Part shown: in pieces, positions 7,055 to 63,216 of the stretch
Numbering within the stretch: position 1 is the stretch's first letter
Layout of the letters: every line of letters starts with the position of its first letter
Source: an uncultured Candidatus Rokubacteria bacterium
Lineage (GTDB): Bacteria; Methylomirabilota; Methylomirabilia; Rokubacteriales; DASRDR01
Length of the DNA stretch: 64,000 nt
Reading direction: 5' to 3'
NCBI GenBank assembly: GCA_963826115.1
Contig: CAWGVS010000010.1
Span: 224,001 to 288,000, forward strand
Notes under the pieces: model-generated
What the model saw: the letters and a program-made list of their open reading frames with translations, nothing else
What the model was told of the DNA's origin: nothing
The model's database searches: none
Program-made: the position numbers and the translations under genes

Positions 7055-8551
7055 TCAGGCGGCGCGGGCCGAGCCGCGCGCGAGCCGGTGAAGCGTCTCC
7101 GGCGTGACCGGGTCGCCGGCGGGCGGCCGCGGGCCGGCCGGCGACCGGAGCAGGTAGAAGCCCTTGAAGGCGTGCTGCCCCGTGAACTTCAGCCCGACCG
7201 CGGGCGCCGCCGCGCGCGGCTCGGCGAGGCGGAGCGGCGAGCCGAAGGTCGAGTCGTCCCAGTACACGACCACGTCCGGCAGGCGGGACGCGAGGGCCGC
7301 GGCGGCGTCGGGGGCGGTGCGGAACACCCGGTGGACGATGGGCCGGCCGTCGCCGCCCCGCGCCGCGCGGAGAGTCTCCTCGATGCGCCCGACCACGTCG
7401 TCGTAGCCCTCGGGCGGGACGATGCCGCGCGCCTCGCGCCCGCGCAGGTTGACGCGGACCCAGCCGTGCTGGTCGGTCGGCAGCGCGAACGCGGCCGTGC
7501 GCGACCAGTCGTAGGTGGGCACGGCCATCGCGGGCTGCGACAGCGCGCCGGTGATCGTCCGGGGCACGTGCCGGTAATAGAGGTGCTTCACGCCGTCGGG
7601 CAGGCTCCGCTTGACCGCGCGCGCGGCCCGCTCCGCCGCCTCCGACCAGGAATGGTCCCGCCACGGCCGGGGGACGGCGAAGCCGCTCGCGCGGAGCAGG
7701 GCCTCGAGGATCGTCGGGATACCGCGGGCGGGCCGCATCCCGTGGAGCGAGAACACCAGGAGCGTCGCGTGCGGCCCCGCCGCGTCCCGGAGCCGGCCGA
7801 TCTCGCGATCGACGGCCTGGAGCAGCGCGGCCAGGCCGGGCCCGCGCGGCGCGGGCAGGCCGTGGTCCGGGTGCGTGGGATCGACGGTGTGCCACAGGAG
7901 GTGCTCCATGTGGTGCACCTCCGGGAAGACCAGGACGAACAGGTCGGGCCTCGTGTCCGAGAGCAGGCGCAGCGCCAGCCGCCCCCGCTGCTCGACCCCC
8001 TGGATGCAGGTCGCCAGCGCGCCCGCGAGCCCGTCGAGGTCTCGGGGGCCGATTGCGTCGACCCCGCCCGCCGCGAAGGGATGCATTCCGCCCGCGCTGC
8101 GGACGACCGGCTCGAGGGTGGCCGGGAAGACCTCGAGCCGGCCCTTCAGGTAGTCGTGCGCGCCCCAGTCGAGGACCTCGTGGCATCCGGGAATCCCGAG
8201 GAGCGGCGCGAACGGGACGTCGAGCACCGTGACCGACCGGCCCGCCTCCGCATCGCCGCGCCAGAACGGATCGAGGTGGTCCCACGACGGCCGCGCGAGG
8301 TCGAGCGAGTCCGGCCGCCACGCCCATTCCCCGTAGAGCCCGTGCTCGCCGAGTGGCCTGCCGCTCAAGAACGAGGGCCAGAGCCCGCTGCTGCAGGTGG
8401 GTGGCGCCGGCACGACCGGGCCCCAGACGCCCTCCGCGGCGAGGTCGCGCAGGGAGGGGAGGTCGCCCCGCTCCATCAGCCGGCGCACGAGCGTGGGCTC
8501 GGCCGCGTCGATGCCGATCAGGAGGACGGGGCCGGCCTCAGATGGGCTCAT
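7055..8551 (-). CDS. Alkaline phosphatase family / type I phosphodiesterase-nucleotide pyrophosphatase
   Basis: Motifs VLLIGIDAAE, WPSFLSG...HGLY, VFSLHG, VRVNLRGRE..GIV and TGQH. Its start overlaps the stop of the upstream gene. Confidence 0.82.
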   Translation of the reverse strand: MSPSEAGPVLLIGIDAAEPTLVRRLMERGDLPSLRDLAAEGVWGPVVPAPPTCSSGLWPSFLSGRPLGEHGLYGEWAWRPDSLDLARPSWDHLDPFWRGDAEAGRSVTVLDVPFAPLLGIPGCHEVLDWGAHDYLKGRLEVFPATLEPVVRSAGGMHPFAAGGVDAIGPRDLDGLAGALATCIQGVEQRGRLALRLLSDTRPDLFVLVFPEVHHMEHLLWHTVDPTHPDHGLPAPRGPGLAALLQAVDREIGRLRDAAGPHATLLVFSLHGMRPARGIPTILEALLRASGFAVPRPWRDHSWSEAAERAARAVKRSLPDGVKHLYYRHVPRTITGALSQPAMAVPTYDWSRTAAFALPTDQHGWVRVNLRGREARGIVPPEGYDDVVGRIEETLRAARGGDGRPIVHRVFRTAPDAAAALASRLPDVVVYWDDSTFGSPLRLAEPRAAAPAVGLKFTGQHAFKGFYLLRSPAGPRPPAGDPVTPETLHRLARGSARAA

Positions 8552-9557
8552 CGAATAGCTCCTGGGGGTTGATCCAGCGCCCCTCCGACGCGGACCGCGC
8601 GCACGCCTCGAGGAGGGCGATCGTCTGGAGGTTGTCGCGGCCGCTCGACTCCGGCTCCACGCCCTCGGCGACGGCGCGTGCGAGCTGGCGGAGCAGCGTG
8701 ACCTCCTCGACCTCGGGTCGCGGGCCGCGGCGGACCAGGCGCGGCAGCCGCCCCCGCTCGCACCACACGAGCCACCGGTGGAAGACATGGAGCGTCCCCC
8801 GGTCGGTGACGGCCCGGAGGTAGAACTCCTGGCCCCGCTCGAAGAACTCGTGGCCGCGCGAATCGTAGGTGGCGGAGAGGGACGCGCGGACGCCGTCCTC
8901 GAACTCGAGCAGGATCTGCATCGACGCGCCGGGCGGCGCCTCGCCCCACGGGAGCGTGAACCGCTGGGCGAGCGCGCGCACGGCGCGCCGGCCCAGCACG
9001 TGGCGAAGACCATCGAGGTGGTGGACGGCGGCCTCCCAGAGCACGGTGTCCCTCATGGTCTGGAGGGCCGGCGCCATCTCCTTCACGCTCCGGTAGGTCT
9101 GCGCCACGATCATGCCGACGCGACCCAGCTCGCCGCCGCGGAGGAGCCGCCCGAGGGTCTGCGGCATCCGCGTGTAGCGGTAGTTCTGGCCCACCATCAG
9201 GGGGACGCGCCGCGCCTCGGCCTGCGCGACGAGCCCGCGCGCCTCGCGGAGGCTCAGGGTGAACGGCTTCTCCACGAGGACGCCGAGACCGCGATCCAGC
9301 GCCGCCCGGCTCGGCTCGACGTGGCAGTCGATCGACGTCGCGACGATGGCCGCCTGCGGCTTTCCGGCGTCCATCGCGGCGTCGAGGCCGGGGTGGACGA
9401 GACCCTCGGCGAGCCCGAGCTCGCGCGCGGCCGCCGTTCGCCGGCCGGCGTCGGGCTCGACCACCCCCGCGAGCTCGAAGCCGGGCGTGGCCTCGAGAAG
9501 GCGGGCCCACTGCCGGCCTCGCGCCCCGAGCCCGAGGACGACTACAGGGAGCGTCAC
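8538..9557 (-). CDS. Gfo/Idh/MocA family oxidoreductase
   Basis: Rossmann GLGARG, VLVEKPF, VGQNYRY and VHHLD. Confidence 0.9.
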   Translation of the reverse strand: MTLPVVVLGLGARGRQWARLLEATPGFELAGVVEPDAGRRTAAARELGLAEGLVHPGLDAAMDAGKPQAAIVATSIDCHVEPSRAALDRGLGVLVEKPFTLSLREARGLVAQAEARRVPLMVGQNYRYTRMPQTLGRLLRGGELGRVGMIVAQTYRSVKEMAPALQTMRDTVLWEAAVHHLDGLRHVLGRRAVRALAQRFTLPWGEAPPGASMQILLEFEDGVRASLSATYDSRGHEFFERGQEFYLRAVTDRGTLHVFHRWLVWCERGRLPRLVRRGPRPEVEEVTLLRQLARAVAEGVEPESSGRDNLQTIALLEACARSASEGRWINPQELFDEPI

Positions 9558-9573
9558 CGCGCGCCCTCGTCTC

Positions 9574-10717
9574 TAGTGTTCCGTCCGCGAAGTCATGTTA
9601 ACGGCCACGCCGGACGGCCTTGGCGATGATGTCCGCCGGGGTCTTGGTCCAGACGAAGGGCGTCGGGTGATCGTTCCAGTGCGCGATGTACTGGTCGATG
9701 TGGCGGATCAGGGCCCGGACGGTGTCGAACGACCCGCGACGCACCGACTTCCGGGTCAGGATCCCGAACCACGCTTCGATCATGTTCAGCCAGGACGCGC
9801 CCTTCGGGGTGAAGTGCAACTGGACCGTCGGATGCGCCTGCGAGCCAGGCCTGCACCGCCGGGGTCGAGTGGGTGGACGAGTTGTCCACCACGACGTGCA
9901 ACTCGCGCCCGCGATACGCACGCGCGAGCCGCTTGAGAAACGCCAGGAAGTCGGCCCCGGTATGCCGGGGGCGACATTCGCCGAGGACCCGCCCACTGGC
10001 CACCTCGAGCGCGGCGTACAGACTCGTCAGGCCGTTCCGCCGGTAGTCATGCGTCTGGCGGGCGGGCAACCCGGGTCGCAACGGGAGCAGCGGCTGCGTG
10101 CGGCTCAGGGCCTGAATCTGCGTCTTCTCATCGAGGCAGAGCACGACCGCGTGCGTGGGCGGATTCAGATACAACCCGACCACGTCTTCGATCTTCTCCG
10201 CCGCCTGCGGATCGGTGGTGAACTTGAACGTCGTCACCCGGTGCGGCTGCAGGGCATGCGCTTTCCAGATCCGATGCACCGTGGTGTGGGACACCCCCGC
10301 CCGGCGGGCCAGCTCCCGGGTCGTCCAGTGGGTTGTTCCCGCCGCGGGGGGGCGGAGCGTGAGGGCCACGACCTGCGCCCGCTGCCGCGCGCTCAGCGTG
10401 GGCGGCCGGCCCGACCGGGGGCGCTCGTGCAAGCCCGCGACGCCGCCCTCGGCAAAGCGGCGCCGCAGGCGACTGACCTGCACCACGGTGTACCCCGTGC
10501 GGTCGGCGATCTCCACGCCGGACAACCCCTGGACCATCAGGAGCACCGCGCGGACGCGGCGACTGAGGCCGGCTCGGACCGACGGGGACCGCTGCAGCCG
10601 CTCCAACTCATGCCGGTCCGCCTCGGTCACGGTGATGGGCCGGATGCGATTGGCCATGGCGATCCTCCTGGAGCATGCCATGGCTAATATTAACTCTACT
10701 TCGGTGACGGAACACTA
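9574..10717. mobile_element. IS630-family insertion sequence with TA target duplication in a CTAG site
   Basis: Imperfect terminal inverted repeats: ctagtgttccgtccgcgaagtcatgtta (9573-9600) versus the reverse complement of taactctacttcggtgacggaacactag (10691-10718). TA at 9574-75 and 10716-17. Confidence 0.92.
9598..10657 (-). CDS. IS630 family transposase (one frameshift near 9840)
   Basis: HTH region WTTRELA, then DEKTQIQAL, THDYRRNG and VVDNSSTH. It continues in another frame as HPTVQLHFTPKGASWLNMIEAWF...PFVWTK. Confidence 0.9.
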
Positions 10718-11155
10718 GCGCGGTCACTCGTGCCGGTCACGATGAGCGCCCGTCGTTCCTTCGGGAGCTTCTCTCCGCTCGGTCTCCTGGAGCTCATCGA
10801 CGCGGTGGCCAACAGGGCGTCCTCGCGTTCCGGCCCGAAATGTTCGACTGGTTCGCACCCGATGGTGGATCTGGTCGAAGGCCTGTTTCCGCGCCTGGTC
10901 TCGAGCGGCGGCTTCTTGCCCACGCGCCACGCCGCGACCCGGACGGGTCCGGTGGTCTCGGTCCGCATCGCGGCTCGCCCTGGAGGATAGCCGAGGCCAC
11001 GGCGCGTCGCCAGTGTGGCGATGGCGCCTCGTCGCGCGCGGTGGTAGCGTCCCCTCGATGCCGGACGCGAGCGCGGAGAAGCGAACGACACGGCGGGTAA
11101 GGAACCCGATGCGGGTGGTCCTCGCGCGGGCCGTCAACCGGGGGTCGGCCCGGCT

Positions 11156-11824
11156 GTGGGGATCCTCCTCGGGTTCCGGCTGCGGGGCGCGTGGCAGCGA
11201 TGGCGTTGGGAGCGGCGCTGGAACGACCTCACCGTCCGGCCGAAGTGGAACGTCGACGTGCCCCGGGAGGTCGTGGCGGCGGTCGAGAGCGGGTGGTTCC
11301 CCCGGAGCGCGCGGGTCCTCGACATCGGCTGCGGCAGCGGGCAGGTCGCCGCGTGGCTGGCCGCCCAGGGCTATCCGGCGGTCGGCATCGACTTCTCGAG
11401 GACGGCGCTCGAGCTCGCGCGGCGGCGCTTCCCGGAGACCCCGGGCCGGCTCGAGTTTCACGAGCTCGACGTCTGCCGGACGCTCCCGCCCGGCCCCGAG
11501 TACGGCGTCCTGATCGACTTCCGCTGCTATCACCAGATCCCGCCCGAGGATCGGCGCGGGTACTGGCGGACGATCGCCCGCGCCGCGGCCCCCGGGGCCC
11601 GGCTCCTGCTCATCTCGAAGGCCTTTCGGGGTCGACGGCCGCTGGGCGATCCGATCGAGGTCCAGCAGGTCACGGGCGCGATCGAGGACGGACAGGACGG
11701 CGCGTTCGCGATCGAGCGCGTCACGGAGACCGTGTTCGAGCCGTATCCCGGCGTCGATCCGGATCGGCCGCGTCCCGGCCTTGCCTTCTGGATGGTCCGC
11801 CGGGACGTGCCCGGGCCCACCTGA
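11156..11824 (+). CDS. Class I SAM-dependent methyltransferase
   Basis: Motif I VLDIGCGSG, then GIDFS and CYH. The start is uncertain. Confidence 0.8.
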   Translation: MGILLGFRLRGAWQRWRWERRWNDLTVRPKWNVDVPREVVAAVESGWFPRSARVLDIGCGSGQVAAWLAAQGYPAVGIDFSRTALELARRRFPETPGRLEFHELDVCRTLPPGPEYGVLIDFRCYHQIPPEDRRGYWRTIARAAAPGARLLLISKAFRGRRPLGDPIEVQQVTGAIEDGQDGAFAIERVTETVFEPYPGVDPDRPRPGLAFWMVRRDVPGPT

Positions 11825-11865
11825 GCGCCGCCCGCGATCGACCGGCCTGCTCGGTCGGCTACACC

Positions 11866-14800
11866 TCAGGGAGGCGGGTCCAGGATCCAGACGACGACGG
11901 ACGACGGGCTGCCGAGGGCAGCCTGCCCACCCGCGTCGTGGAGGGTTACCCGGAACGCGCGCGGTCCCGGCGCGCCGTCGCGCGGTAACAGGGCGATCTC
12001 CACCGTGCGGCTGGGCGTGCCCGAGTCGAACGTGAGCGTCGTCGGCGGCAGCGCGGCGTAGTCCACGTCCACCAGCGCGTCCGCGCCGGGGGTGGCGTCG
12101 TCGCCGTCGTGCGCCGTCACGCCGACCGTGACGGCGCTCGCCGCGCCTCCCGTTCGGGTCACGGTGAGGACGATGGTGCCTCCTGCGACGCCGCTCGCGT
12201 CGGTGACGCTCCACCGGAGCGTGCCGGCCACGTCGTTGTCCGTGAAGCTCACCGTCGCGATGGACGGGGTGGTAAGGGTGGCGCCGGACGGGCTCTGCAG
12301 GGCAAGTCCGAAGCTCTCCGTTCCCTCGGCCCGGGTGTCGGGGCAGAGCGTCACCGGCACCGTCTTGGACCCCTGGCCGGCCGGGATGGTGACGGGGATC
12401 ACCGCGCTCGAGAAGTCCGCGCCGCCCACGCCGCACGCGCCGCCGGTCGCGGAGCTGATCTGCTGGGGCACCAGGTTGACCGACACCGCCGCCGTCGTGG
12501 GACCCGAGCGCAACACGGTGACGTTGAAGCTCGCGCTCGCCTCTCCCACCACGTAGGTGGCGCTGTTGAGCCGGAGCTTCGGCTCGTTGTCGTTGATCGT
12601 CAGGGTGGCCTGGCTGGGGTTGCCGAGCGAGGCGAGGCCGACCGGCAGCGGGTCCGAGAGCTCAACGACGACCGTCCGCGGGCCATCCGCCGCCGACGTG
12701 TTCACGAGCGGGATCGTGATGGTCTGGCTGGTCTCCCCGGACGCGAACGGGATGTCGCCCTCGGTCGGACCCGTGTAGTCCGTGCCGTGGACCGCCGAGC
12801 CCCCGATGATCGCCCAGTGCACCGTGACGCCGCCGCCGCTCCCCGTCCGGGTCACGATGAGGGTCCCGTTCTGGCCCTCCGTACCGGCGTACGTCGCGCT
12901 CGAGAACCGGACCGCACCCGCAACATCGTTCTCGGTGATGGTGAGGACGGCGGAGGCCCCCGGAGGCCCGACGACGGCGGGGCCGCTCACCACGGCGAGC
13001 GTGAGCGTCAGATCCTCGTTGCCCTCCACCCCGCCGTCGCCGCAGAGCGGGACGCTGAACGTCTTGCTGGTCTGCCCGGGGCTGAACGTCAGCGTGCCGC
13101 TGACAGGCCGGTAGTCCGCGCCGGGCGCGCAAGCTCCCGATGTCGGGGCCGGTGTCGCGGAGCCGGGCGGCCCGGCGGCGTAGCCCACCGTCACGGCGTA
13201 CGTCGCCACCCCGCTCCGTGTGACGGTGACGGTCTTGCTCCCGCTGCCCTCGCTCACGGTCAAGGGGAGACCCGAGAACTGGACGGTCCCCTCCACGAGT
13301 GTCAGCGTCGTCGCCGTTATCGAGCCGAGGGCCCAGCCCGTGCTCGGGTTCCCGAGGGCGAGCTCCACGGTTTCGGACGGCGTCTCGAGCACGCCGTCGA
13401 AGCTGACGGCGAGCGTGAGGGGCAGCGTGGGCGTCGACTGTCCGGGCGCGAACGTCAGGGTGCCGCTCGGCGCCGACACGTAGTCGATGCCCCCGCCGGC
13501 CACGTCTCCCCGGGTCGCGCTGCCGCCGGTGATGGTCCAGTCGATCGTGGCCGCCTCGCCGAGATTCCCCGTTCGCGTCACGGGGATCGTCACGCTCGCG
13601 TTCGCCTCGGCCGCGTTGAGGACCGGCGCGGAGAACTGGATCGTTCCCTTGCGGTCGCTGTCGACCACGACGAGGGTCGCCTTCTTGATGGTCCCTAGCA
13701 CGCCGCCGGGCGTCGGCGTCCCGAGCCCGAGGACCACGGTCTCGTTGGGCTCCACCTCCGGGTCGCTCACGATCGTGGCCTGGATCGTCTTGGTCAGGAC
13801 ATTCGGGCCGAAGCTGAGCGTGCCCGACGGCGCGATCCAGACGTCGACGCTCGGGGTGCCGGTCACCCCGGTGCTGGCGGTGCCGCCGGTGATGCTCCAC
13901 GGGACCTCCACGGTCCCCCCGGCGCCGCCGGTGCGCGCGACGGTGATGGTCACGTTGACGTTGCCGGTCGCGCCCTCGGTTCCCGTGTAGGTCGCGCTGG
14001 TGAACTGGAAGGTCCCCGCGGTGTCGTTGTCGGCGACCCCGATGGTCGTCATGCTCGGATCGCCCAGCGTGCCGGCGGAGGGGCTCGAGAGCTTGAGCTT
14101 CACGGTCCGGAGCCCGTCCAGCATCACGTCGTTCTTCAGCGGCACGGTGAACACCCTCGACGTCTGGTTTGCCGCGAAGGACAGGATCGTCGTGGTGGGC
14201 ATGTAGTCGGTGCCGGCGGCCGCAGTCCCGGCCTGGACGTCGGGTACGTCGACGGTGCCGACGGTGACGCTCGCGGCGGCCTGGGCCGGGCCGGTGCGGA
14301 GCACGGTGACCGTCTGGCTCCCGCTGATCTCGTTCGTCGCGTAGGCGGCCTTGTCGAACCGGAAGCCGACCTCGTCGTCGAGCAGCGTCAGCTTGAGGAC
14401 CTTCGCGGATCCGAGGGCCGCGCCGCCCGTCTGGTTGCTGAGGGTGACCTCGATCGTCCGGCTCCCGTGTGGGCCGGCGGGGTTGAGGAGCGAGATCGTG
14501 ACGGGGACGACCGGGACGCCGCTGTTGGCCGCGAACTGGACGGGGCCGGTCGTGGCCCCGGTGTAGTCCACGCCGAATACGGCGTTGCCGCCCGTGATGG
14601 TCCACGTCGCGCCGACGGGGCCGGCCGCGCCGCCGGTCCGGACGGCGTTGAGCGTGACCGTCGGGGCGCTCTCGAGCACGCTGACATTCGCGGGACTCCA
14701 CTGGATGGTTCCGCCGACGTCGTTGTTGCCGATGGTGATCGTGGCGGTGGCGGGGCTGCCGATGCCCGACAGTCCGACCGGCCCGGCGTCCTGGAGCGCG

Positions 14801-49205: not shown

Positions 49206-51668
49206 CTACTGGATCAGGTAGACCAGGGTGAAGATCGCGATCCACACGACGTCCACGAAGTGCCAGTAGAGCCCGACCATGTCCACGACCGCCTCGTCCC
49301 GGGCGCCGAGCCGGCCGCGCGTCAGGAGGACCCAGAGCGTCAGGAGCCAGAGCACGCCGACGGTGACGTGGGCGCCGTGGAAGCCGACCATCACGTAGAA
49401 CGTCGCGGCGAAGAGGTTCGTCGTGAGCCCGAGCCCCTCGTGGACGAAGTGGCTGAACTCGTAGACCTGGCCGGCGAGGAACACGCCCCCGAGGGCGGCC
49501 GTCGCCAAGAGCCAGCGTCTGGCCGCGCGGACGTCGCGCGCCTGGATCGCGGCCACGCCGAGCACCATCGTCAGGCTCGACATCAGGAGGACGAAGGTGC
49601 TGATCGTGATCAGCGGGATGTTCAGGACGTCGTGGGGGTAGGGGCCCTGGAGGCTCCGGCCCCGGTAGACCATGTAGGTCGAGATCAGCGTGCCGAAGAA
49701 GAGGCACTCCGAGCCGATGAACACCCACATGCCGAGCTTCCGGTGGTCGAGGCCCGTCGCCCCGATGTGGGGATCCTCGCGGCCGTGGGCCGCGTGGCCG
49801 CTCTCGTCCGCGCGGGCCGGGACGAGCTCGGTCGCGAACCCGAGGACCGCGAGCGCGGTCAGGAGGCCCCCGAGGATCACGACCCCCAGGTGGAGCAGTG
49901 CCCCCGACACCAGCACGATCATCGCGAGGGCGGTCAGGAGGGGCCAGTGGGACGGCGCCGGCATGTGGATCGCCCCGACCGGCGCGACGAGCGCGCGGGG
50001 ATCCTCGAGGCCCGGCCCGCGCGCGTCGGGATGCTTGGTGAGCCAGAGGGCGTCCCGGCGGCGGACCGTCGGGAGCGACGCGAAGTTGTAGGCGGGGGGC
50101 GGGGAGGGGATCGCCCACTCGAGCGTCCGGCCGTCCCAGGGGTCGGGGCCCGCGGGGGCGCCCGCCCGGAGGCTCCGCGCGACGTTCGCGAGGAACACGA
50201 GCATCGAGACGCCCTGGGTGATTGCGCCGATCGTGCAGACCAGATTCCAGAAGTCCCAGCCGAGCCCCGGCGCGTAGGTGTAGATCCGCCGCGGCATGCC
50301 CATGAGCCCCAGGAAGTGCATGGGAAAGAACGTCAGGTTGAAGCCGATCAGCATGAGCCAGAAGTGGACGATCCCCAGGCGCTCGTCGAGGAGCCGCCCC
50401 GTCATCTTCGGGAACCAGTAGTAGATACCGGCGAAGAGCCCGAGCACCATGCCGCCGAACAACACGTAGTGGAAGTGCGCCACGATGAAGTAGGAGTCGG
50501 TCTGCTGGAGGTCCACGGGCGGTGAGGCGTGCATGATCCCGGAGAGGCCGCCGATCGTGAACATGGCCACGAACGAGGCGGCGAAGCAGAAGGCCGTCCG
50601 GAACCGAAGCGAGCCGCCCCAGAGGGTCGACAGCCAGTTGAAGATCTTGATGCCGGTCGGGATGGCGATCAGCATCGTCATCAGCGAGAAGGCCGAGTCG
50701 GCAATCGGGCCCATGCCGACCGCGAACATGTGGTGGGCCCATACGCCGAAGCCCAGGAAGCCGATGAGCGCCGTCGCGTAGACCATCGACGGGTAGCCGA
50801 AGAGCGGCTTCCGCGCGAAGGCCGGCAGCACCTCAGAGACGATCCCCATCGCCGGGAGGATCAGGATGTACACCTCGGGATGGCCGAAGATCCAGAAGAG
50901 GTGCTGCCAGAGGAGCGGCGAGCCGCCGCCGGCGGGGATGTAGAAGGAGGTCCCGAAGAAGCGGTCGAACATCAGGAAGATCAGGGCGACCGTGACCGGC
51001 GGGAAGGCGAGGAGGATGAGGACGTTCGTGACGATCGTCGTCCAGACGAAGATCGGCAGCCGGAGGAAGGTCATTCCCGGCGCGCGTAGGTTGAGGATGG
51101 TGACCAGGAAGTTGATGGACGCGAGGATGCTCGACGTCCCGAGGAAAATGAGACCGAAGAGCCAGAAGTCCGAGTTCGGGCCGAGGGAGAACGGCTTGGT
51201 CGTGAGTGGCGCGTAGCCGAACCACCCGGCGTCCGGCGCGGCGCCCACGAACCAGCTGGCGTTCAGGAACAGCCCGCCGAGGAGGAAGACCCAGTAGGAG
51301 AAGGCGTTGAGCCGCGGGAAGGCGACGTCCCGCGCGCCGATCATGAGCGGGATCATGTAGTTGAAGAACGCGGCCGAGAGCGGCATCACTGCCAGGAAGA
51401 CCATGCTCGTCCCGTGCATGGTGAAGAGCTCGTTGTAGCGCTGGGCGCTCAGCAGCTGGCCGTCGGGGCGCGCCAGCTGGAACCGGATCAGCAGCGCCTC
51501 CACCCCCGCGATCAGGAAGAACGCGAGCGCCGTCGAGCCGTAGAGCAGACCGATCCGCTTGTGGTCGACCGTGGTGAGCCACGCGGCGAGACCGCGGCCC
51601 TCGGCGGCCGGCATGGCGTGAGCGGCGGCGGCGACCGACGCGGCGTGACCGTGGGTGGGTGGGCTCAC
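49206..51668 (-). CDS. ctaD: Cytochrome c oxidase subunit I fused to subunit III (A1-type, caa3-like)
   Basis: TVDHKRIG, TMHG, GHPEVY, WAHHMF, AHFHYV and GMPRR. Then in frame GMWVFIGSE, FHGAHV and LYWHFVDVVW. Confidence 0.92.
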   Translation of the reverse strand: MSPPTHGHAASVAAAAHAMPAAEGRGLAAWLTTVDHKRIGLLYGSTALAFFLIAGVEALLIRFQLARPDGQLLSAQRYNELFTMHGTSMVFLAVMPLSAAFFNYMIPLMIGARDVAFPRLNAFSYWVFLLGGLFLNASWFVGAAPDAGWFGYAPLTTKPFSLGPNSDFWLFGLIFLGTSSILASINFLVTILNLRAPGMTFLRLPIFVWTTIVTNVLILLAFPPVTVALIFLMFDRFFGTSFYIPAGGGSPLLWQHLFWIFGHPEVYILILPAMGIVSEVLPAFARKPLFGYPSMVYATALIGFLGFGVWAHHMFAVGMGPIADSAFSLMTMLIAIPTGIKIFNWLSTLWGGSLRFRTAFCFAASFVAMFTIGGLSGIMHASPPVDLQQTDSYFIVAHFHYVLFGGMVLGLFAGIYYWFPKMTGRLLDERLGIVHFWLMLIGFNLTFFPMHFLGLMGMPRRIYTYAPGLGWDFWNLVCTIGAITQGVSMLVFLANVARSLRAGAPAGPDPWDGRTLEWAIPSPPPAYNFASLPTVRRRDALWLTKHPDARGPGLEDPRALVAPVGAIHMPAPSHWPLLTALAMIVLVSGALLHLGVVILGGLLTALAVLGFATELVPARADESGHAAHGREDPHIGATGLDHRKLGMWVFIGSECLFFGTLISTYMVYRGRSLQGPYPHDVLNIPLITISTFVLLMSSLTMVLGVAAIQARDVRAARRWLLATAALGGVFLAGQVYEFSHFVHEGLGLTTNLFAATFYVMVGFHGAHVTVGVLWLLTLWVLLTRGRLGARDEAVVDMVGLYWHFVDVVWIAIFTLVYLIQ

Positions 51669-52696
51669 TGGAGGCTCTGGAGGTAGGCGACCAGCGCGGC
51701 CACCTGATCGTCGGTCAGCGACTGGTCCGGCATCAGGGAGCCGGGTTTCACCGCCCGCGCGTGCCGCACCCATCGCGCGAGGCTCTCGGGCGTGTTCGGG
51801 AGGATGCCGCCCGCGAGGGTCCGCCGCGAGCCCACGTGCGTGAGGTCGGGTCCGATCCCGCCGCCCGAGACGCCGCGAATCGTGTGACAGCCGACGCAGG
51901 TGCCGGTCCGGAAGAGCTGGAGCCCGAGCGCCGCGGGCGACCCGTCGGGCGGAGTCGGGGCCGGCTCCTTCTGCTTCGCCACCCACGCCTGGAACGCCTC
52001 GGGCGCCTCCACGACGGCGAAGTGCCGCATGTTGGCGTGGGAGACGCCGCAGAACTCCGCGCACTGACCGTAGTACACCCCGGGGGTGTCCGCGGTGAGC
52101 ACGATGCGCGTCCGGGTACCGGGCATCGCGTCGCGCTTGCCGCCGAGGCCCGGGACCCAGAAGCTGTGGATCACGTCGACGCTGCCGATCTCGAGGCTCA
52201 CCGGCCGGCCGGCCGGCAGGTGGAGATCGCTCGCGGTCACGATCCCGAGCTCCGGGTACTGGAACTCCCACCACCACTGGTGGCCGATCACCTTCACGCG
52301 AAGCGCGTCCTTGGGCGGCGCGGCCTGCGTCCGGAAGATCGCCGACACGGTCGGGAAGGCGATGAACGTGAGGATCACCGCGGGGATGAGCGTCCAGATG
52401 ATCTCGAGCATCGCGCTGCCCCGGACCTGCCGGGGGATCGCCTTCGGGTCGCGCTCGCGGAACCGGAACACGGCGACCAGGAGGAGCACCTGCACGATGA
52501 GGAAGATCGCCGTGTCCCACCGGAGGATCTGCATGAAGATGCGATGCGAGAGCCAGGCGAAGTCCGATCGCGGCAGGAGGGTGGTCGCCGGCGAGTCGAG
52601 GAGGCCGCACCCGGCCAGCAAGAGGCCGAAGGCCAGCGCCCCGAGTCGCAAGACCGGGGTCGGCCGCGCGCGCCTGAGGGCCGGTGTCGAGTCCAT
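51665..52696 (-). CDS. ctaC: Cytochrome c oxidase subunit II with fused cytochrome c
   Basis: GHQWWW, DVIHSFW, CuA motif CAEFCGVSHANM and heme motif CVGCH. Lipobox LAGC. Confidence 0.93.
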   Translation of the reverse strand: MDSTPALRRARPTPVLRLGALAFGLLLAGCGLLDSPATTLLPRSDFAWLSHRIFMQILRWDTAIFLIVQVLLLVAVFRFRERDPKAIPRQVRGSAMLEIIWTLIPAVILTFIAFPTVSAIFRTQAAPPKDALRVKVIGHQWWWEFQYPELGIVTASDLHLPAGRPVSLEIGSVDVIHSFWVPGLGGKRDAMPGTRTRIVLTADTPGVYYGQCAEFCGVSHANMRHFAVVEAPEAFQAWVAKQKEPAPTPPDGSPAALGLQLFRTGTCVGCHTIRGVSGGGIGPDLTHVGSRRTLAGGILPNTPESLARWVRHARAVKPGSLMPDQSLTDDQVAALVAYLQSLQ

Positions 52697-52902
52697 GTCG
52701 AGAGCGATCGGAGGAAGTCCGATCAACGGGCGCCGGGGGACAGCCTAGCGCAAACGCATCGGGCCTGCCAGGGCGCGTTGGCCGTCCGGACCCGGCGCAA
52801 CGAGGCACGCGGCCGCGCGCGCCTCGGCACGGGCCCGGGTCTTGCTACACTCCGAGATGGATGCGGTCTCACGCCGAATCTCGCCGCTCCGAGGCTCCCG
52901 CG

Positions 52903-56621: not shown

Positions 56622-58051
<1,430 letters not shown>

Positions 58052-58061
<10 letters not shown>

Positions 58062-58206
58062 ACTGTGCACCCTGCACTGTCTAGTGTGCAGCGTGGCATA
58101 ACATATTGATTCTGAACGAGTAATCACGCCGGAGGTCCCGTCGGGGCGCTCACTCCCGTGTAGGAAGTGCACAAGAAACAGTGCACCGTGAACTAGTGAC
58201 GATACA
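58052..58206. promoter_or_regulatory. Enhancer-like palindromes TGCAC-N8-GTGCA (candidate bEBP binding sites)
   Basis: Perfect sites at 58052-58069, 58073-58090 and 58168-58185. Degenerate TGAAC-N8-ATACA at 58189-58206. They form two pairs, each 21 bp apart. Confidence 0.75.
58099..58111 (-). promoter_or_regulatory. IHF consensus site
   Basis: The minus strand reads AATCAATATGTTA, an exact match to WATCAANNNNTTR. Confidence 0.6.
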
Positions 58207-58285
58207 CCCCACCTGCTGTCGCTCCGATTCGGATTCATCCGTAACGGCCAGCACTTAGATCTCCGAAGCGGGCTCGGATCCCCCG

Positions 58286-58301
58286 TGGCCCCGCCATTGC
58301 T
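58286..58301 (+). promoter_or_regulatory. Sigma-54 -24/-12 promoter for the peptide array
   Basis: TGGCCCCGCCATTGCT has GG and GC at the canonical spacing (TGGCNC-N5-TTGCW), about 60 bp before the first peptide ATG. Confidence 0.75.
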
Positions 58302-58363
58302 CTCCGAGCCTGCGACACCCACACAAGGCGTCCCGTCTCGGGACGCATGGAGGAGGCCTGCCC

Positions 58364-58510
58364 ATGACCAAGAAGCTCACCGCAATCCTGGCGCTCATCG
58401 CGTCGTTCCTGCTGGTCGCGCCCGTGCTCGAGTCCGGGACGCCGAACCAGGTCCACGTCTTCCAAGCGGTCGGCGACGCGTGCGACAGCGGCGGTGGCGG
58501 CGGCTGGTAA
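58364..58510 (+). CDS. Small secreted peptide precursor 1 (48 aa; missing from the ORF track)
   Basis: GGAGGAGG RBS. MTKKLTAILALIASFLLVAPVLESGTPNQVHVFQAVGDACDSGGGGGW-TAA. Confidence 0.88.
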   Translation: MTKKLTAILALIASFLLVAPVLESGTPNQVHVFQAVGDACDSGGGGGW

Positions 58511-58580
58511 GCCCGGGTCCGATGCGGCGATTCCGAACCCAGTCCGAACCTGGTGGCGCGCTGCGGCGCGCCGGGAGGCC

Positions 58581-58727
58581 ATGATGGCAAGACTATTGGC
58601 GGCGCTGGTGGTGGTGGTGTCCTTCCTGCTCGTGGCGCCCGTGATCGAGTCCGGGACCCCGAGCCACGTGCACGTCTTCCAGGCGGTCGGCGACGCGTGC
58701 GACAGCGGCGGTGGCGGCGGCTGGTAG
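58581..58727 (+). CDS. Small secreted peptide precursor 2 (48 aa)
   Basis: GGAGG RBS. MMARLLAALVVVVSFLLVAPVIESGTPSHVHVFQAVGDACDSGGGGGW-TAG. Confidence 0.88.
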   Translation: MMARLLAALVVVVSFLLVAPVIESGTPSHVHVFQAVGDACDSGGGGGW

Positions 58728-58798
58728 GCCCGGGCCCGGTGCGACGACTCTCAACCCCTTTCCGAACCCAGAGGCGCGCGACGGCGCGCATGGAGGCC

Positions 58799-58945
58799 AT
58801 GATGGCGAGACTATTGGCGGTGCTGACGGTGGTGGTGTCCTTCCTGCTCGTGGCGCCGGTGATCGAGTCCGGGACGCCGAACCAGGTCCACGTGTTCCAG
58901 GCGATCGGCAACGCCTCCGACAGCGGTGGTGGCGGCGGCTGGTAG
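58799..58945 (+). CDS. Small secreted peptide precursor 3 (48 aa)
   Basis: GGAGG RBS. MMARLLAVLTVVVSFLLVAPVIESGTPNQVHVFQAIGNASDSGGGGGW-TAG. Confidence 0.88.
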   Translation: MMARLLAVLTVVVSFLLVAPVIESGTPNQVHVFQAIGNASDSGGGGGW

Positions 58946-59016
58946 GCCCGGGCCCGATGCGGCGACTCTCAACCCCTTTCCGAACCCAGAGGCGCGCGGC
59001 GGTGCGCTTGGAGGCT

Positions 59017-59163
59017 ATGATGGCGAAGTTATGGGTCGTGCTCGCGGTAATGGTGTCCTTCCTGCTCGTGGCGCCGGTGATCGAGTCCGGGACCCCGAGT
59101 CACGCGCGTGTGTTCCAGGCCGTGGGCGACGCCTGCGACAGCGGCGGCGGCGGCGGCTGGTAA
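59017..59163 (+). CDS. Small secreted peptide precursor 4 (48 aa)
   Basis: GGAGG RBS. MMAKLWVVLAVMVSFLLVAPVIESGTPSHARVFQAVGDACDSGGGGGW-TAA. Confidence 0.88.
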   Translation: MMAKLWVVLAVMVSFLLVAPVIESGTPSHARVFQAVGDACDSGGGGGW

Positions 59164-59180
59164 CCTCTCCGCAGGTTCGA

Positions 59181-60833
59181 ATGCGTCTCGCCGGGGCGGG
59201 ACCCCGCCCGCGACGCGGGCGGCAGGCCGCGGGTCTCCTCCTCGGGGCGATCGCGGGGGCGCTCTGGCTCTCGCTGGGCCTCTGGCCGTCGATGGCCGAG
59301 GCCCAGGAGCGCCCGCCGGCCCAGGCGGGCGGAGTGTACCGTCGCCCGCTCGGCAACGACCCGGCGACCCTCGACCCCGCTCGTCTGCGGGACATCTACA
59401 GTCTCGCGGTCGGGCAGCAGCTCTTCGACGGGCTGGTCCAGTTCGACCAGACGCTGAACATCACCCCGGCGCTGGCGCAGTTCTGGGTCGCCTCGCGTGA
59501 CTGGCTGACCTGGACCTTCACGCTGCGGAAGGGGGTCAAGTTCCACCACGGACGCGAGGTCACCTCGGACGACGTCGTGTACTCGTTCACGCGCCTCCTG
59601 GATCCCCGCCTGCGCTCGGGCGGGGCGGACCACTTCATGACGATCCAGGGGGCGCCGGAGTTCCGGGAAGGGAAGGCCAAGCAGGTCGCCGGCCTGGCGG
59701 CTCTCGATCGCTACACGGTGCGCGTCACCCTCACCGAGGCGTCGGTGCCGTTCGTCTCCATCCTCGCGGTCGGCCAGGCGAAGATCGTGCCGCGGGAGCT
59801 GGTCGAAGAGCAGGGGGAGGCGTTTGGGCTCCAGCCGGTGGGAACCGGCCCCTTCAAGTTCGTCCGCTGGGAGCGCGGGAAGGAGATCGTTCTCGCGGCC
59901 AATCCCGACTACTTCGACGGGCCGCCGAAGCTCGCGCGGCTCGTGTTTCGCATCTTTCCGGGCGAGCGCCTCGACAGCGTGTTCGCGGACTTCCAGGCCG
60001 GGAACCTCGAGGACAGCCCGATCCCGTCCAAGGACTACCGCCAGATCATTGCGAGCCAGGCCTACCAGTACTTCCGCCGGCCGATCTTCAGCCTGCGGCA
60101 CTACGGGCTCAACACCCGGATGAAGCCGCTGGACGACCGGCGGGTGCGCCAGGCGCTCGTCTACGCCATCGACCGCGAGGCCATCGTCGCGGATCCGTGG
60201 CTCGGCCGCTACGCGCTCGCGCGCGGCATCCTGCCGCCCGGGACGCTCGGGTTCAATCCGAAGCTTCGGGGCTATCCGTACGATCCCCCGCGCGCCCGGG
60301 AGCTCCTGGTCCAGGCGGGCTACCCCGGCGGGAAGGGCCTGCCCCCGATCGCGATCTGGTCCAGCGTACGCTCCGAGGAGATGCTGCGCGAGCACGAGCG
60401 CATCCGGAAGGACCTCGAGGCCGTCGGGGTGACCGCGGAGTTCCAGTACAGCCCGGACTGGCCGACGTACTCCAAGGCCATGTCCGAGCGGAAGCTGCCG
60501 GTCTTCCTCCGGGGCTGGCTCGCCGACGTGCCGGACCCCGAGAACTTCCTGGCCAAGCTCTTCCACTCCGCCAGCCCGTGGAACTACATGGGCTACGCGA
60601 ACGCGACCGTGGACGGCCTCCTCGAGAAGGCCCGGGCCGAGCCGGACGTGCCGCGCCGGGTCGAGGTTTACCGCCGGGCCGAGGAGCTCGTCATGGATGA
60701 CGCGCCCGTGATCCCGGTCTGGCACCAGACCTACGAGCGCCTCTTCCAGCCGTACGTCAAGGGTGTCGAGGTGAGCGGCCTCGGCGACGCGTACATCCCC
60801 TTCCGAAAGGTGTGGCTCGAGCGACCGCGCTGA
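59181..60833 (+). CDS. Orphan peptide-binding protein (ABC family 5 SBP, DppA/OppA-like)
   Basis: Signal peptide ending AEA, DPATLDPA, TWTFTLRKGVKFHHG, PVGTGPFKF and GWLADVPDPENFL. No adjacent permease or ATPase. Confidence 0.92.
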   Translation: MRLAGAGPRPRRGRQAAGLLLGAIAGALWLSLGLWPSMAEAQERPPAQAGGVYRRPLGNDPATLDPARLRDIYSLAVGQQLFDGLVQFDQTLNITPALAQFWVASRDWLTWTFTLRKGVKFHHGREVTSDDVVYSFTRLLDPRLRSGGADHFMTIQGAPEFREGKAKQVAGLAALDRYTVRVTLTEASVPFVSILAVGQAKIVPRELVEEQGEAFGLQPVGTGPFKFVRWERGKEIVLAANPDYFDGPPKLARLVFRIFPGERLDSVFADFQAGNLEDSPIPSKDYRQIIASQAYQYFRRPIFSLRHYGLNTRMKPLDDRRVRQALVYAIDREAIVADPWLGRYALARGILPPGTLGFNPKLRGYPYDPPRARELLVQAGYPGGKGLPPIAIWSSVRSEEMLREHERIRKDLEAVGVTAEFQYSPDWPTYSKAMSERKLPVFLRGWLADVPDPENFLAKLFHSASPWNYMGYANATVDGLLEKARAEPDVPRRVEVYRRAEELVMDDAPVIPVWHQTYERLFQPYVKGVEVSGLGDAYIPFRKVWLERPR

Positions 60834-60844
60834 TCGGGGCTGGG

Positions 60845-62764
60845 ATGAGGCGCCCGGTGTTCGTCTCGCTCCGCACGAAGCTCCTCACCGGCACGCTGCT
60901 CATCGTCGCCGTCCTCATGGCCGCCGTGACCGCGGTCGTCGAGCACCGGCAGCGGACGACCATCATCGAGGAGGTTCACCGGCGCGGGACGGCGATGGCG
61001 GAGGGCCTGGCCGGGGTCTCGGCGGGCGCGCTCCTCCTGTACAACTTCACCGCGCTCGAGCAGAACGTCGTCCGCTTCGACCGCGAGACCGACGTCGTCT
61101 CCGCGATGATCCTCGACCGTTTCGGCCAGGTGGTGGCGCACAGCCGGACGCCCGCCGCGGTGGGGTCGACGCTGTCGGACCCGGTGTCGCTCCGCGCCCT
61201 CTCGGCCGCGCCCGTGCTCCAGGAGACGGCCGGGCCGGACGGCGAGGCTCTCTACGACGTCGCCGTGCCCATCCTCGTCGAGGGAGTCCGGTGGGGCACG
61301 GTGCGGATCGCGCTGTCGCGCCAGCGCATGGACGCGGAGATCTCGGGCACGCGGCGCGAGCTGGCCATGGTCGCGGTGGTCGCCCTCGTGCTGGGCGGGC
61401 TGGCGACGGTGATCGTCGGCCGCCGGATGACCCGGCCGGTCCGCCAGCTCGCCGACGGCGTCGCCGCGATCGCGCGCGGCGAGCTGGACCAGCGCATCGA
61501 ACCCGGCCGGTCCGACGAGCTGGGTCGCCTGGCGCTCGCCTTCAACGAGATGGCGGCCCAGCTCCGGCAGCAGCGGACGGACCTCGAGGTTGCCGACGCC
61601 GCGCTCCGCCAGCGGTTCGCGGAGCTCTCCGACCTCAAGAGCTACACCGACCACATCCTCCGGTCGTTCGTGAACGGCCTGGTGACGCTCGACCTGGACG
61701 GCCGGGTGGTCACCGTGAACCCCGCGGCGGAGGCCCTCACGGGCCGCGCGGCGGCCGAGCTCACCGGGCGCCCGACGACGGAGACGTTCCAGAACGCGCC
61801 GGAGCTCCGGGACCTGCTCCTCGAGACGCTGCGAACCCGGGTCGGCGTGCCCCACGTGTCGCTGATGCTGCCCCGGGGCGACGGCCCGCCGGTCCCGGTG
61901 GAGGTCACCACGACGCCCCTCCGCGGGGCCGAGGGGCAGGCGCTCGGCGTGGTGGCGATCCTCCGCGACCTCACCCCCGTTCGCCAGCTGGAGGAGCAGC
62001 TGCGGCGCTCCGACCGCCTCGCGGCGCTCGGCACCCTGGCCGCCGGCCTGGCCCACGAGATCAAGAACCCGCTCACCTCCATCATGACGTTCAGCCGCCA
62101 CATCGCCCGGCGATTCGACGACGAGCGGTTTCGGCAGCGGTTCCAGAGCGTCGTCCCGCGGGAGCTCGAGCGCATCAACGCGATCGTCGACGGGCTCCTC
62201 CGGCTCGCCCGGCCCGCGCGCCTGGTCCTGGCGCCGGTGCACGTGCCGCCCCTCATCGAGCAGGCCCTCGAGCTCTACGCTCCGCAGATCGAGGCCCGCC
62301 GCATCCGCGTGCGGCGCGAGTGGCCGATCGGCATGCCGCCCATCCCGGGGGACACGGAGCACCTCTACCAGGCCTTCCTGAATCTCGTCGCGAACGCGAT
62401 CGACGCGATGGAAGAGGAAGGGGGGACGCTCACCCTGCGCCTCGGCTGGCCCCGGGACGCCGACGGGCTCGGCCACGCCGTGCGCGACCGGGTGGTGCTG
62501 GAGGTGATCGACACGGGGAGCGGCATCAAGCCCGAGGAGACGCCCGAAGTCTTCAACCCGTTCTTCACCACGAAGTCGGGGGGCACCGGGCTCGGTCTCG
62601 CCATCGCCCACAAGATCATCGAGGATCACGGAGGCACGGTGACGTTCCGGAGCAGCCCCGGCCAGGGGACGGTGTTCACCGTGGTGCTCCCGGTCCGCGC
62701 CGGCCGGCACGCCGAGCCCCTGGTCCGCGGGGAGTGGCGAGTCGGGGGTCAGGCTCCCCCGTGA
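60845..62764 (+). CDS. Membrane sensor histidine kinase (TM-periplasmic Cache-like-TM-HAMP-PAS-HisKA-HATPase; NtrB/AtoS-like)
   Basis: HAMP motif DELGRLALAFNEM, PAS segment, H-box AHEIKNPL, N-box NLVANAIDAM, DTGSGI and FFTTK.GGTGLGL. Confidence 0.94.
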   Translation: MRRPVFVSLRTKLLTGTLLIVAVLMAAVTAVVEHRQRTTIIEEVHRRGTAMAEGLAGVSAGALLLYNFTALEQNVVRFDRETDVVSAMILDRFGQVVAHSRTPAAVGSTLSDPVSLRALSAAPVLQETAGPDGEALYDVAVPILVEGVRWGTVRIALSRQRMDAEISGTRRELAMVAVVALVLGGLATVIVGRRMTRPVRQLADGVAAIARGELDQRIEPGRSDELGRLALAFNEMAAQLRQQRTDLEVADAALRQRFAELSDLKSYTDHILRSFVNGLVTLDLDGRVVTVNPAAEALTGRAAAELTGRPTTETFQNAPELRDLLLETLRTRVGVPHVSLMLPRGDGPPVPVEVTTTPLRGAEGQALGVVAILRDLTPVRQLEEQLRRSDRLAALGTLAAGLAHEIKNPLTSIMTFSRHIARRFDDERFRQRFQSVVPRELERINAIVDGLLRLARPARLVLAPVHVPPLIEQALELYAPQIEARRIRVRREWPIGMPPIPGDTEHLYQAFLNLVANAIDAMEEEGGTLTLRLGWPRDADGLGHAVRDRVVLEVIDTGSGIKPEETPEVFNPFFTTKSGGTGLGLAIAHKIIEDHGGTVTFRSSPGQGTVFTVVLPVRAGRHAEPLVRGEWRVGGQAPP

Positions 62765-63216
62765 GCGGGCCGGCCGCGGGCGCGCAGCACGAAGGCGCGC
62801 CGCCGCCCCCGGGGGATCCCCCGCGAGCCCTCCTCGTCGAGGACGAGCGCTTCGTGGGCGAGCTCCTGGCCGAGTACCTCTCCCTGGAAGGGTACGAGGT
62901 CGATCGGGCGATGGACGGGCGGGAGGCGCTCGCACTCGTGCGGCAGCGCGACTATGCTCTGATCGTCAGCGACGTGCGGATGCCGGACGTCGACGGCCCG
63001 ACTCTCTACCGCGAGCTCCAGGTCGCGCGCCCCGAGCTGGCGCGGCGCATGGTGTTCGTCACCGGGGACGTCGTCAGCACCGGGACGCGCCGGTTCCTCG
63101 ACGAGACGTGCCTCCGCTACCTGGAGAAGCCGTTCACGATCGCGCAGTTCCAGAGGGTGGTGCAGGGGGTGCTGGCGGCGCCACCGCCGCCGGGCCGCGG
63201 ACCGGCGGCTACTTGA
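62761..63216 (+). CDS. Single-domain response regulator (receiver)
   Basis: LLVEDE, IVSDVRMPDVDG, FVTG and LEKPF. GTGA overlap with the kinase stop. Confidence 0.87.
   Translation: MSGPAAGAQHEGAPPPPGDPPRALLVEDERFVGELLAEYLSLEGYEVDRAMDGREALALVRQRDYALIVSDVRMPDVDGPTLYRELQVARPELARRMVFVTGDVVSTGTRRFLDETCLRYLEKPFTIAQFQRVVQGVLAAPPPPGRGPAAT

Follow-up and report, generated by a model that had tools for sequence, protein, structure and literature searches.

The question raised by this locus is what the DNA at 58052-58301 controls, and through which regulator. The stretch analysed here (the window) is 64,000 nt of a Rokubacteria contig with a G+C content of 72%, and the original prediction had proposed that the region is a sigma-54 enhancer linking the adjacent bEBP gene to expression of the small peptides encoded downstream. 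The features discussed are collected in Table 1; distances are counted from a predicted +1 at 58312, obtained by taking C58300 as -12.

Table 1. Features of the locus, in window coordinates
Feature	Position	Strand	Remarks
NtrC/AtoC-type bEBP	56658-58061	+	Receiver, sigma-54 AAA+ with GAFTGA, Fis-type HTH; Pfam Response_reg, Sigma54_activat, HTH_8
Upstream activator site 1	58052-58069		Centre -251.5; holds the bEBP stop codon; column identity 0.88 (9 close relatives)
Upstream activator site 2	58073-58090		Centre -230.5; 21 bp from site 1; column identity 0.87
IHF consensus	58099-58111	-	Centre -207; between the distal pair and site 3
Upstream activator site 3 (proximal)	58168-58185		Centre -135.5; column identity 0.93
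Weak candidate fourth site	58189-58206		3/10 mismatches; outside the conserved architecture
Sigma-54 -24/-12 promoter	58286-58301	+	TGGC-N7-TTGCT; predicted transcription start 58312
5'-UTR hairpin	58328-58346	+	Predicted fold; directly before the Shine-Dalgarno
Peptide precursor 1	58364-58510	+	ORF, 48 aa; no Pfam/NCBIfam family
Peptide precursor 2	58581-58727	+	ORF; tandem copy
Peptide precursor 3	58799-58945	+	ORF; Ser at position 40
Peptide precursor 4	59017-59163	+	ORF
Family-5 (DppA/OppA-like) SBP	59181-60833	+	SBP_bac_5; no neighbouring permease; predicted peptide receptor
Sensor histidine kinase (AtoS-like)	60845-62764	+	Two membrane helices, sCache_3, HAMP, PAS, HisKA, HATPase, by domain matches
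Single-domain response regulator	62794-63216	+	Pfam match; accessory; start approximate

Palindromic activator sites

Three perfect TGCAC-N8-GTGCA palindromes begin at 58052, 58073 and 58168, just where they had been predicted, and all three are kept in relatives. No other perfect TGCAC-Nx-GTGCA match with a spacer of 3 to 14 nt is present in the whole 64 kb, and none of 3,000 dinucleotide shuffles of the 324-nt region contained any 5-mer palindrome occurring three times with one spacer; across the window the same criterion selects 2 of 637 tiles, both over the enhancer region. With one mismatch tolerated there are four TGCAC-N8-GTGCA sites, a number equalled in 9 of 100 shuffles, so the count alone is unremarkable. 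A one-mismatch site at 22365 lies far from any relaxed sigma-54 match, and a matrix scan found no other enhancer-type site above 9 bits in the window; a wider regulon within the window was rejected on both grounds. The palindromes were also considered as structured RNA or a repeat, an idea set aside as Rfam gave one CRISPR-repeat match that is sub-threshold (E 0.38) and outside the region.

In the 520 nt ahead of peptide genes the exact N8 site is found 41 times, and the rest of the 1.15 Mb of related loci has none; a lack of such conservation upstream of homologous peptide genes had been named beforehand as a refuting outcome, and the check is in favour of the prediction. At least one palindromic site is found in 63 of 70 loci, using a matrix trained on those same regions, and 15 of 72 loci are without any site of at least 14 bits. 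N9 matches in loci L047, L052 and L063 were discarded, as they seem to fall within coding sequence.

The sites had been described as two pairs, each 21 bp apart. This holds for 58052/58073 and fails for 58168/58189: with a matrix built from relatives, sites 1 to 3 score 22-26 bits and the fourth scores 3.7 bits, and the window contains 217 sites with as many mismatches. The column identity of the fourth site among nine close relatives is 0.34, within the background of 0.34-0.39 (compared with 0.87-0.93 for sites 1 to 3), and an equivalent is absent in all 13 relatives checked, which rules it out as a conserved element. It does rank 11th of 63,982 window positions and lies exactly 21 bp from site 3, and given this rank and register a weak local fourth site is possible in the window. 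The conserved layout is a pair, an IHF match and a single site.

The further proposal that 21 bp represents two helical turns is not borne out. Neighbouring sites are separated by 21-22 bp in 15 of 16 N8 pairs and mostly by 19-20 bp (13 of 21) in N7 pairs, so that the constant is a gap of ∼3 bp; the spacing of adjacent sites thus reflects a short gap between dimers rather than two strict turns. Helical phasing over distinct site positions is insignificant (R of 0.05 for N7 and 0.22 for N8), and strict phasing of all sites was dropped for this reason. The distance from site 2 to site 3 in three-site loci is either 81-86 or 94-95 bp, which is suggestive only.

IHF match, promoter and leader

The IHF consensus WATCAANNNNTTR is matched exactly on the minus strand at 58099-58111, the sole match in the window, and 1 of 100 shuffles contains one. 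Nine close relatives carry WATCAR-N4-TTR at the same place exactly (six), with one mismatch (two) or not at all (one), with a column identity of 0.62 for the match; exact copies are present in 9 of 71 intergenic regions, compared with 1 of 710 shuffles and none of 291 coding windows. The exact match had been predicted to lie between two pairs of sites; the match is sound, but its neighbours are the distal pair and the single proximal site. At -207 it sits between sites 2 and 3 and not between the enhancer and the promoter. Other subclades have a promoter-proximal IHF-like site near -60 that is degenerate in the clade of the window.

The predicted TGGC-N7-TTGCT is present at 58286 and is the only match in the window, yet 28 of 100 shuffles yield such an element, and confidence in it therefore rests on conservation. 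In 72 of 74 loci a -24/-12 element (at least 8/9) precedes the peptide start by 58-97 nt, compared with 4 of 728 control windows, and the column identity of the promoter among the nine close relatives is 0.88; of the two exceptions, L011 is truncated and in L025 the promoter lies ∼300 nt further up. A search of 57900-59300 found no sigma-70 promoter or terminator. These sequence data support the interpretation of 58052-58301 as a sigma-54 promoter with upstream activator sites and an IHF site, upstream of the peptides. It is a real and conserved enhancer/promoter, and taken by itself an ordinary, well-built one of the sigma-54 type with a new spacer variant.

The leader has features of its own. 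A hairpin ahead of the Shine-Dalgarno is present in the 5' UTRs of most loci and has changes on both sides in 8 of 9 pairs among 33 chosen UTRs, which are 82% paired, a result seen in none of 500 shuffles; its loop in relatives is often AUGGG or AUGGU, the sequence in the window's clade differs from the majority one, and there is no Rfam match. An inverted repeat also precedes each tandem peptide copy in the window. Loci L048 and L066 have two -24/-12 matches ∼330 nt apart upstream of the peptide, suggesting a duplicated promoter or a second small gene.

The adjacent activator and the spacer of the sites

The bEBP, whose true start may be slightly upstream of 56658, has the GAFTGA motif, Walker A and B motifs, receiver and HTH expected of a cognate activator. 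Its best NCBIfam match is AtoC, although it falls under all listed cut-offs, and it is not an NtrC equivalog (451 bits against a cut-off of 559 for TIGR01818, and 368 against 620 for NF008176); a PDB search with the HTH region returned NtrX only. GAFTGA is present in 55 of 61 related bEBPs and [H/Q]RN in the HTH of 66 of 66. We consider it highly likely that the adjacent bEBP binds the palindromic sites.

Site 1 does overlap the bEBP stop codon as originally described, the stop at 58059-58061 falling inside 58052-58069. As a functional link this overlap was rejected: of 59 loci, 10 have the first called site across the stop, 48 have it after the stop and one has it inside the gene. A distance of 226-2516 nt separates the sites from the bEBP stop in L009, L017, L044 and L060, where they remain with the promoter, and because they do so across separations of 0.2-2.5 kb the overlap is incidental. 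The site sequence reads Ala-Gln-stop, which would give N7 and N8 bEBPs their shared C-terminal ends.

The half-site resembles that of NtrC, and the additional spacer base had been taken as a sign of dedicated specificity. The resemblance and the N8 spacer are confirmed, and the window contains N8 sites only, without the 17-bp TGCAC-N7-GTGCA box of NtrC; the inference of specificity is not supported, as N8 is a clade variant. Spacer classes in 72 loci are N7 in 35, N8 in 19, mixed in 3 and no strong site in 15, and five loci (L016, L018, L023, L031 and L035) have an exact TGCACCA-N3-TGGTGCA, the Escherichia coli NtrC consensus within a 17-bp box (PMC8743547). Since 35 of 72 loci are N7, some with the textbook NtrC box, the module does not need a non-NtrC spacing.

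A quick bEBP tree, covering 61 of 67 rows with six left out, places 14 of 15 N8 loci in one clade (SH-aLRT 97). However, the difference between N8 and N7 needs two changes on each of the SBP, kinase and bEBP trees (43 loci), and because all three trees agree the pattern is one of linkage, not of a bEBP reading its spacer; spacer type is non-discriminating and was rejected as proof of bEBP specificity. A candidate determinant of the spacer is the dimer-helix residue after a conserved Ala, which is Arg or Leu in 12 of 13 N8 rows and Thr, Ser or Ile in N7 rows.

Single loci depart from this arrangement. L008 has no bEBP or kinase nearby and has lost site 1 (a single case); alone among 73 promoters (72 loci and the window), its promoter has a substitution of the T preceding the -12 GC. 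L047 (8594-9660) and L052 (8153-9216, minus strand) carry a second sigma-54 activator that lacks a receiver and has its own -24/-12 match upstream.

A conserved module and probable operon of peptide, SBP and kinase

The gaps between the last peptide gene and the SBP gene (17 nt) and between the SBP and kinase genes (11 nt) are so short that peptides, SBP and kinase probably form one operon. A genome scan with the SBP alignment gave 149 relatives, the best 80 of which make up the locus set; 70 of these 80 are labelled Rokubacteria/Methylomirabilota, and 5 carry other names, four of them on contigs of <8 kb and possibly mis-binned. Among the loci of this set with enough flank, the peptide is present in 74 of 74, the bEBP upstream in 57 of 59 and the kinase after the SBP in 71 of 72. 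As judged from gene content and order, the module of sigma-54 bEBP, peptide precursor, family-5 SBP without a permease and sCache kinase is a conserved unit. A close orthologue of the single-domain response regulator occurs in 8 of the best 80 loci.

No Opp/Dpp-type permease, exporter or peptidase is present among the 31 of 60 recurrent neighbour clusters annotated with Pfam, many of the remaining clusters being opposite-strand shadow frames. The SBP gene lies beside a Cache-domain kinase gene and without its own permease, as in systems where an SBP stimulates the kinase. Distance correlations are 0.87 for kinase and bEBP and 0.62-0.67 for pairs with the SBP, a weak measure as all are co-inherited.

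The wider surroundings are variable. Genes that recur 4-10 kb from the SBP are, on the upstream side, dnaK, dnaJ, lon and those for a MerR-type regulator and a lytic transglycosylase, each in 11-23 loci; on the downstream side, a branched-chain-type ABC transporter in convergent orientation recurs in 24-27 loci. The window's clade instead carries a DUF1989 gene on the upstream side and a gene for an ABC-F ATPase on the downstream side. The window also encodes cytochrome c oxidase genes at 49206-52726 (minus strand), with subunits I and III seemingly in one long open frame. A PemK/MazF-like gene is located between the bEBP and the promoter in L060 (3400-8210), which has two SBP copies, and L032 has a second, truncated SBP copy at 11521-12003.

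The window's four tandem peptide ORFs code for 47-48 aa each and repeat every ∼218 nt, and precursors across the loci are 41-48 aa and signal-peptide-like. Precursor 1 has a basic N-terminus, an 18-residue uncharged stretch, P-x-x-E-S, the core F-Q-A-V-G-D-A-C-D and a Gly-rich tail. The 85 peptides compared share the basic N-terminus, the uncharged stretch (18 residues in 73), an invariant P-x-x-E followed by Ser or Thr in 84, and, after a variable linker, F-Q-A-[I/V]-G-[T/N/D]-A-[D/E/C] and a Gly-rich tail; by eye, this pattern fits a signal peptide cut after P-x-x-E-S. Pfam and NCBIfam contain no family for the peptide. Its relatives (42 matches in the 90% protein set and 56 among 50% representatives) are 'hypothetical' or without a name, and the ESM Atlas gave hypothetical clusters only, with a recognition value under threshold.

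Some peptide genes vary in ways worth recording. Copy 3 (58799-58945) has Ser for Cys at position 40 and Asn at 38 and may thus provide a second of two signal variants; outside the close clade, Cys40 occurs only in L071. L008 has five peptide copies at 8470-11850, three of them frameshifted, possibly through assembly errors. A thioamide-forming YcaO and TfuA pair is encoded between the bEBP and the peptide promoter in L017 (3479-5970) and L025 (2261-4755) and just upstream of the bEBP in L031 (5593-8081). These are 3 of the best 80 loci and belong to different bEBP clades; the pair is absent from the window and from 77 of the 80 loci, and the peptide may be thioamidated in the lineages of the three.

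Predicted pairing of the peptide with the SBP

Named relatives of the SBP are from Methylomirabilota/Rokubacteria, and its PDB relatives include PrgZ. Covariation and a model of the complex, which may not be fully independent lines, indicate that the peptide is very probably the ligand of the co-encoded SBP. The covariation set has 70 loci including the window (10 of 80 were left out for a missing or frameshifted peptide or a broken SBP, and one for a gap); all 39 loci with peptide Asp40 have SBP Arg75, and all 31 with another residue at peptide position 40 have a residue other than Arg at SBP position 75, so that all 70 are concordant. The choice of this pair was post hoc, out of 14 x 493 pairs, and its independent contrasts agree in 8 of 8 cases on the SBP tree (p 0.008), built with the tested column removed, in 9 of 9 on the bEBP tree (p 0.004) and in 10 of 10 on the kinase tree (p 0.002). 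The next-best SBP column agrees in 55 of 70 and the best kinase column in 41 of 50; peptide-receptor specificity groups (Asp40/Arg75) are therefore found with the SBP and not with the kinase. An acidic peptide residue 41 agrees with SBP Arg444, but the tree shows a single change in the peptide trait, and this pair was rejected as independent evidence.

The complex was modelled with SBP residues 48-550 and peptide residues 19-48 and scored 0.84, compared with 0.01 for the best of three controls, whose peptides are not Gly-rich; the mark used is reached by 116 of 157 solved pairs and 2 of 215 mismatched pairs. The runs share at least 72% of contacts, with partner pLDDT of at least 54. Peptide residues 35-48 are placed against SBP 69-75, 394-401, 427-434 and 443-450, with the C-terminal core in the cleft. 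SBP strand 443-450 aligns with the GW-x-x-D strand of DppA, and because of this the model's pass may come from likeness to solved DppA/OppA-peptide structures. In DppA and OppA the Asp of that strand binds the free alpha-amino group of the peptide, and the corresponding Asp449, like Ala448, is invariant in 71 of 71 sequences. Of the covarying pairs, the first 4 in rank, and 8 of the first 15, fall in the modelled interface, which has 11% of columns. The list of the 25 lowest-error contacts does not include the 40-75 pair, and conservation of interface columns is 0.75, compared with 0.77 for the rest.

A proposed self-regulating loop and its alternatives

These findings suggest that the genes form a peptide-signalling loop, apparently an undescribed one, and we favour a self-regulating operon in which the signal runs from peptide to SBP, kinase, bEBP and the promoter at 58286-58301, with a probability of roughly 0.6. 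Dimers of the neighbouring bEBP would bind the palindromic sites, in the simplest wiring one dimer at each of the three, by analogy with NorR. A bend made by IHF at -207 would draw the distal pair toward the proximal site and help the three dimers to build an active ring, and the phosphorylated bEBP would then open the promoter, giving a transcript for four peptide precursors, SBP and kinase. We infer that the signal-peptide-like N-terminus directs export of the precursor and that trimming leaves a short core from the C-terminal end, approximately G-x-A-[D/E/C]-x-G-G-G-x, which would occupy the cleft of the co-encoded SBP. The SBP would modulate the sCache kinase, and the kinase would set bEBP phosphorylation, closing the loop on the promoter. 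The computational evidence extends to the sites, the promoter, the gene order and, by covariation and model, the peptide-SBP pairing; the SBP-kinase contact and kinase-bEBP pairing are proposed by analogy and from linkage. That the enhancer links the adjacent bEBP to the peptides, the core of the original prediction, is supported as the most plausible account, to which the analysis adds the proposed link through SBP and kinase that the prediction lacked.

The main rival keeps the same promoter and partners and differs in the fate of the peptide, which would stay anchored in the membrane with its periplasmic tail as a tethered SBP ligand, or be released to the periplasm only. The system would then serve feedback in one cell, as a monitor of export or envelope proteolysis or, in the form that competes most strongly with the favoured loop, in the manner of MgrB, and not cell-to-cell signalling. 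The 18-residue uncharged stretch in 73 of 85 peptides can span a membrane, the P-x-x-E is invariant, no exporter or peptidase is annotated among the conserved neighbours, and an outer membrane would hinder peptide release from Rokubacteria, which we take to be diderm. On the other hand, the variable positions of the peptide change with the SBP rather than with the kinase, and repeated, matched D/R versus E/L switches and tandem copies (4 here) suit a diffusible, type-specific signal; free-amino binding at the invariant Asp449, aligned as it is to the DppA strand, would imply a cut peptide. MgrB, a membrane peptide of 47 aa under PhoP control with feedback on PhoQ (PMC2789325), is a precedent, but on balance we regard a tethered or periplasmic peptide as unlikely.

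Covariation and model indicate binding and not agonism, and the peptide could thus be a plug or antagonist that competes for the SBP with the true inducer, one from elsewhere, for example an environmental peptide, making it a self-made shut-off like iCF10; the Enterococcus I and C peptides compete in this way at PrgZ/PrgX (PMC5552905). The pocket has changed in step with the peptide at least 8-10 independent times, which is hard to fit to a fixed external ligand and makes this role improbable. Still more remote is a palindrome reader other than the neighbouring bEBP, such as a nitrogen regulator of the NtrC type, with the bEBP acting on targets elsewhere. The five loci with exact NtrC consensus boxes are in keeping with such a reader, as is L012, which retains the sites with no bEBP within 10 kb, but the N8 sites of the window are confined to one clade of the linked bEBP, the exact motif and further sites above 9 bits are missing elsewhere (in 1.15 Mb and in the window, respectively), the bEBP itself is under the NtrC cut-offs and the annotated conserved neighbours include no nitrogen genes.

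Relation to known systems

The DNA resembles NtrC/glnAp2-type promoters in its -24/-12 element, palindromic upstream sites, IHF site and adjacent receiver-AAA+-HTH activator; the TGCAC half-site is common to the 17-bp NtrC box (PMC8743547), and three sites are also required in NorR (PMC4987338). It departs from these in its 18-bp (N8) sites, two of which, at -230 and -251, are beyond the usual enhancer distance of 80-150 bp (PMC4987338), in the position of the exact IHF match between sites and not next to the promoter, and in a bEBP that is under both the NtrC and AtoC cut-offs.

The combination of SBP, Cache-domain kinase and sigma-54 activator is shared with AioX-AioS-AioR (arsenite) and LuxP-LuxQ-LuxU-LuxO (AI-2). 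AioS has an sCache-like domain and kinase-stimulating SBPs are encoded beside signalling genes (PMC8050422), and AoxR/AioR activates a sigma-54 promoter (PMC2848651). Unlike these systems, the ligand here appears to be a peptide encoded in the same operon and the SBP is of family 5; no Hpt or sRNA layer of the Lux kind was seen at the locus. Family-5 control of a membrane kinase is known from CBP-ChiS of Vibrio cholerae (PMC8050422; PMC12704726), but the ligands of CBP are chitin oligosaccharides and it works with a transporter as well, ChiS itself binds DNA, and there is neither a bEBP nor a self-made ligand. The SBP-activated kinases listed in one review respond to small molecules or sugars (PMC8050422), and section 14 of another source names only ChvE-VirA and BctC-BctE as further SBP-kinase models (PMC12704726).

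In agr and ComCDE the peptide binds the kinase directly, the regulator is of the LytTR type, and export and processing are dedicated (AgrB, ComAB). The locus differs in having a sigma-54 bEBP and a peptide that tracks the SBP, with no conserved exporter or peptidase among annotated neighbours; it is alike in that a small precursor gene is co-located with receptor and regulator genes, under a promoter of that regulator's type, as in the loops by which agr and ComCDE activate their own operons (PMC8895600). Peptide signalling through kinases is described there as a Gram-positive trait (PMC8895600). Rap-Phr also has an exported precursor of ∼40 aa giving a short active peptide (PMC3601957), and PrgZ is a dedicated peptide-binding protein (PMC5552905), but in those systems Opp takes up the peptide, whose targets are RRNPP proteins of the cytoplasm, whereas at the present locus the SBP is followed by a membrane kinase and no permease was found. 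MgrB-PhoQ likewise includes a hydrophobic peptide, of 47-48 aa, induced by the system it may control (PMC2789325); MgrB contacts the kinase, whereas the sequence signal here points to the SBP.

The module is a member of none of these systems, its regulator being neither LytTR-type nor NtrC and its ligand self-encoded; by analogy, the best reading is agr-like autoinduction built from LuxPQ/AioXSR-type parts. A full-text literature search, covering few subscription papers, found no description of it, and a term search of the main text of a sigma-54 regulon survey (PMC12316311) found no Rokubacteria.

Implications

The value of the enhancer is that it would close the loop, uniting a self-encoded peptide, a dedicated SBP, a kinase and a sigma-54 activator in one conserved unit of an uncultured lineage. 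Every step is testable without culturing the host, using synthetic peptides, one soluble protein and a 260-bp promoter; the Asp40/Arg75 residue pair predicts cross-talk, and the split between N7 and N8 among close orthologues is a natural experiment on operator spacing by NtrC-like dimers.

The hosts of the module are uncultured soil and groundwater bacteria (Rokubacteria). A more far-reaching and tentative proposal, which we think somewhat doubtful at present, is that Rokubacteriales have ribosomal-peptide quorum sensing of a new architecture, in which an exported precursor yields a Gly-rich pheromone that acts through a family-5 SBP, an sCache kinase and a sigma-54 activator on a three-site enhancer, with signal types set by peptide and pocket, dose by copy number, and some signals thioamidated. 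If so, the pheromone would be read outside the inner membrane, the Asp40-Arg75 and acidic 41-Arg444 swaps would define strain-specific signal types, tandem gene copies would raise the dose, and some lineages would thioamidate their signal via the co-located YcaO-TfuA.
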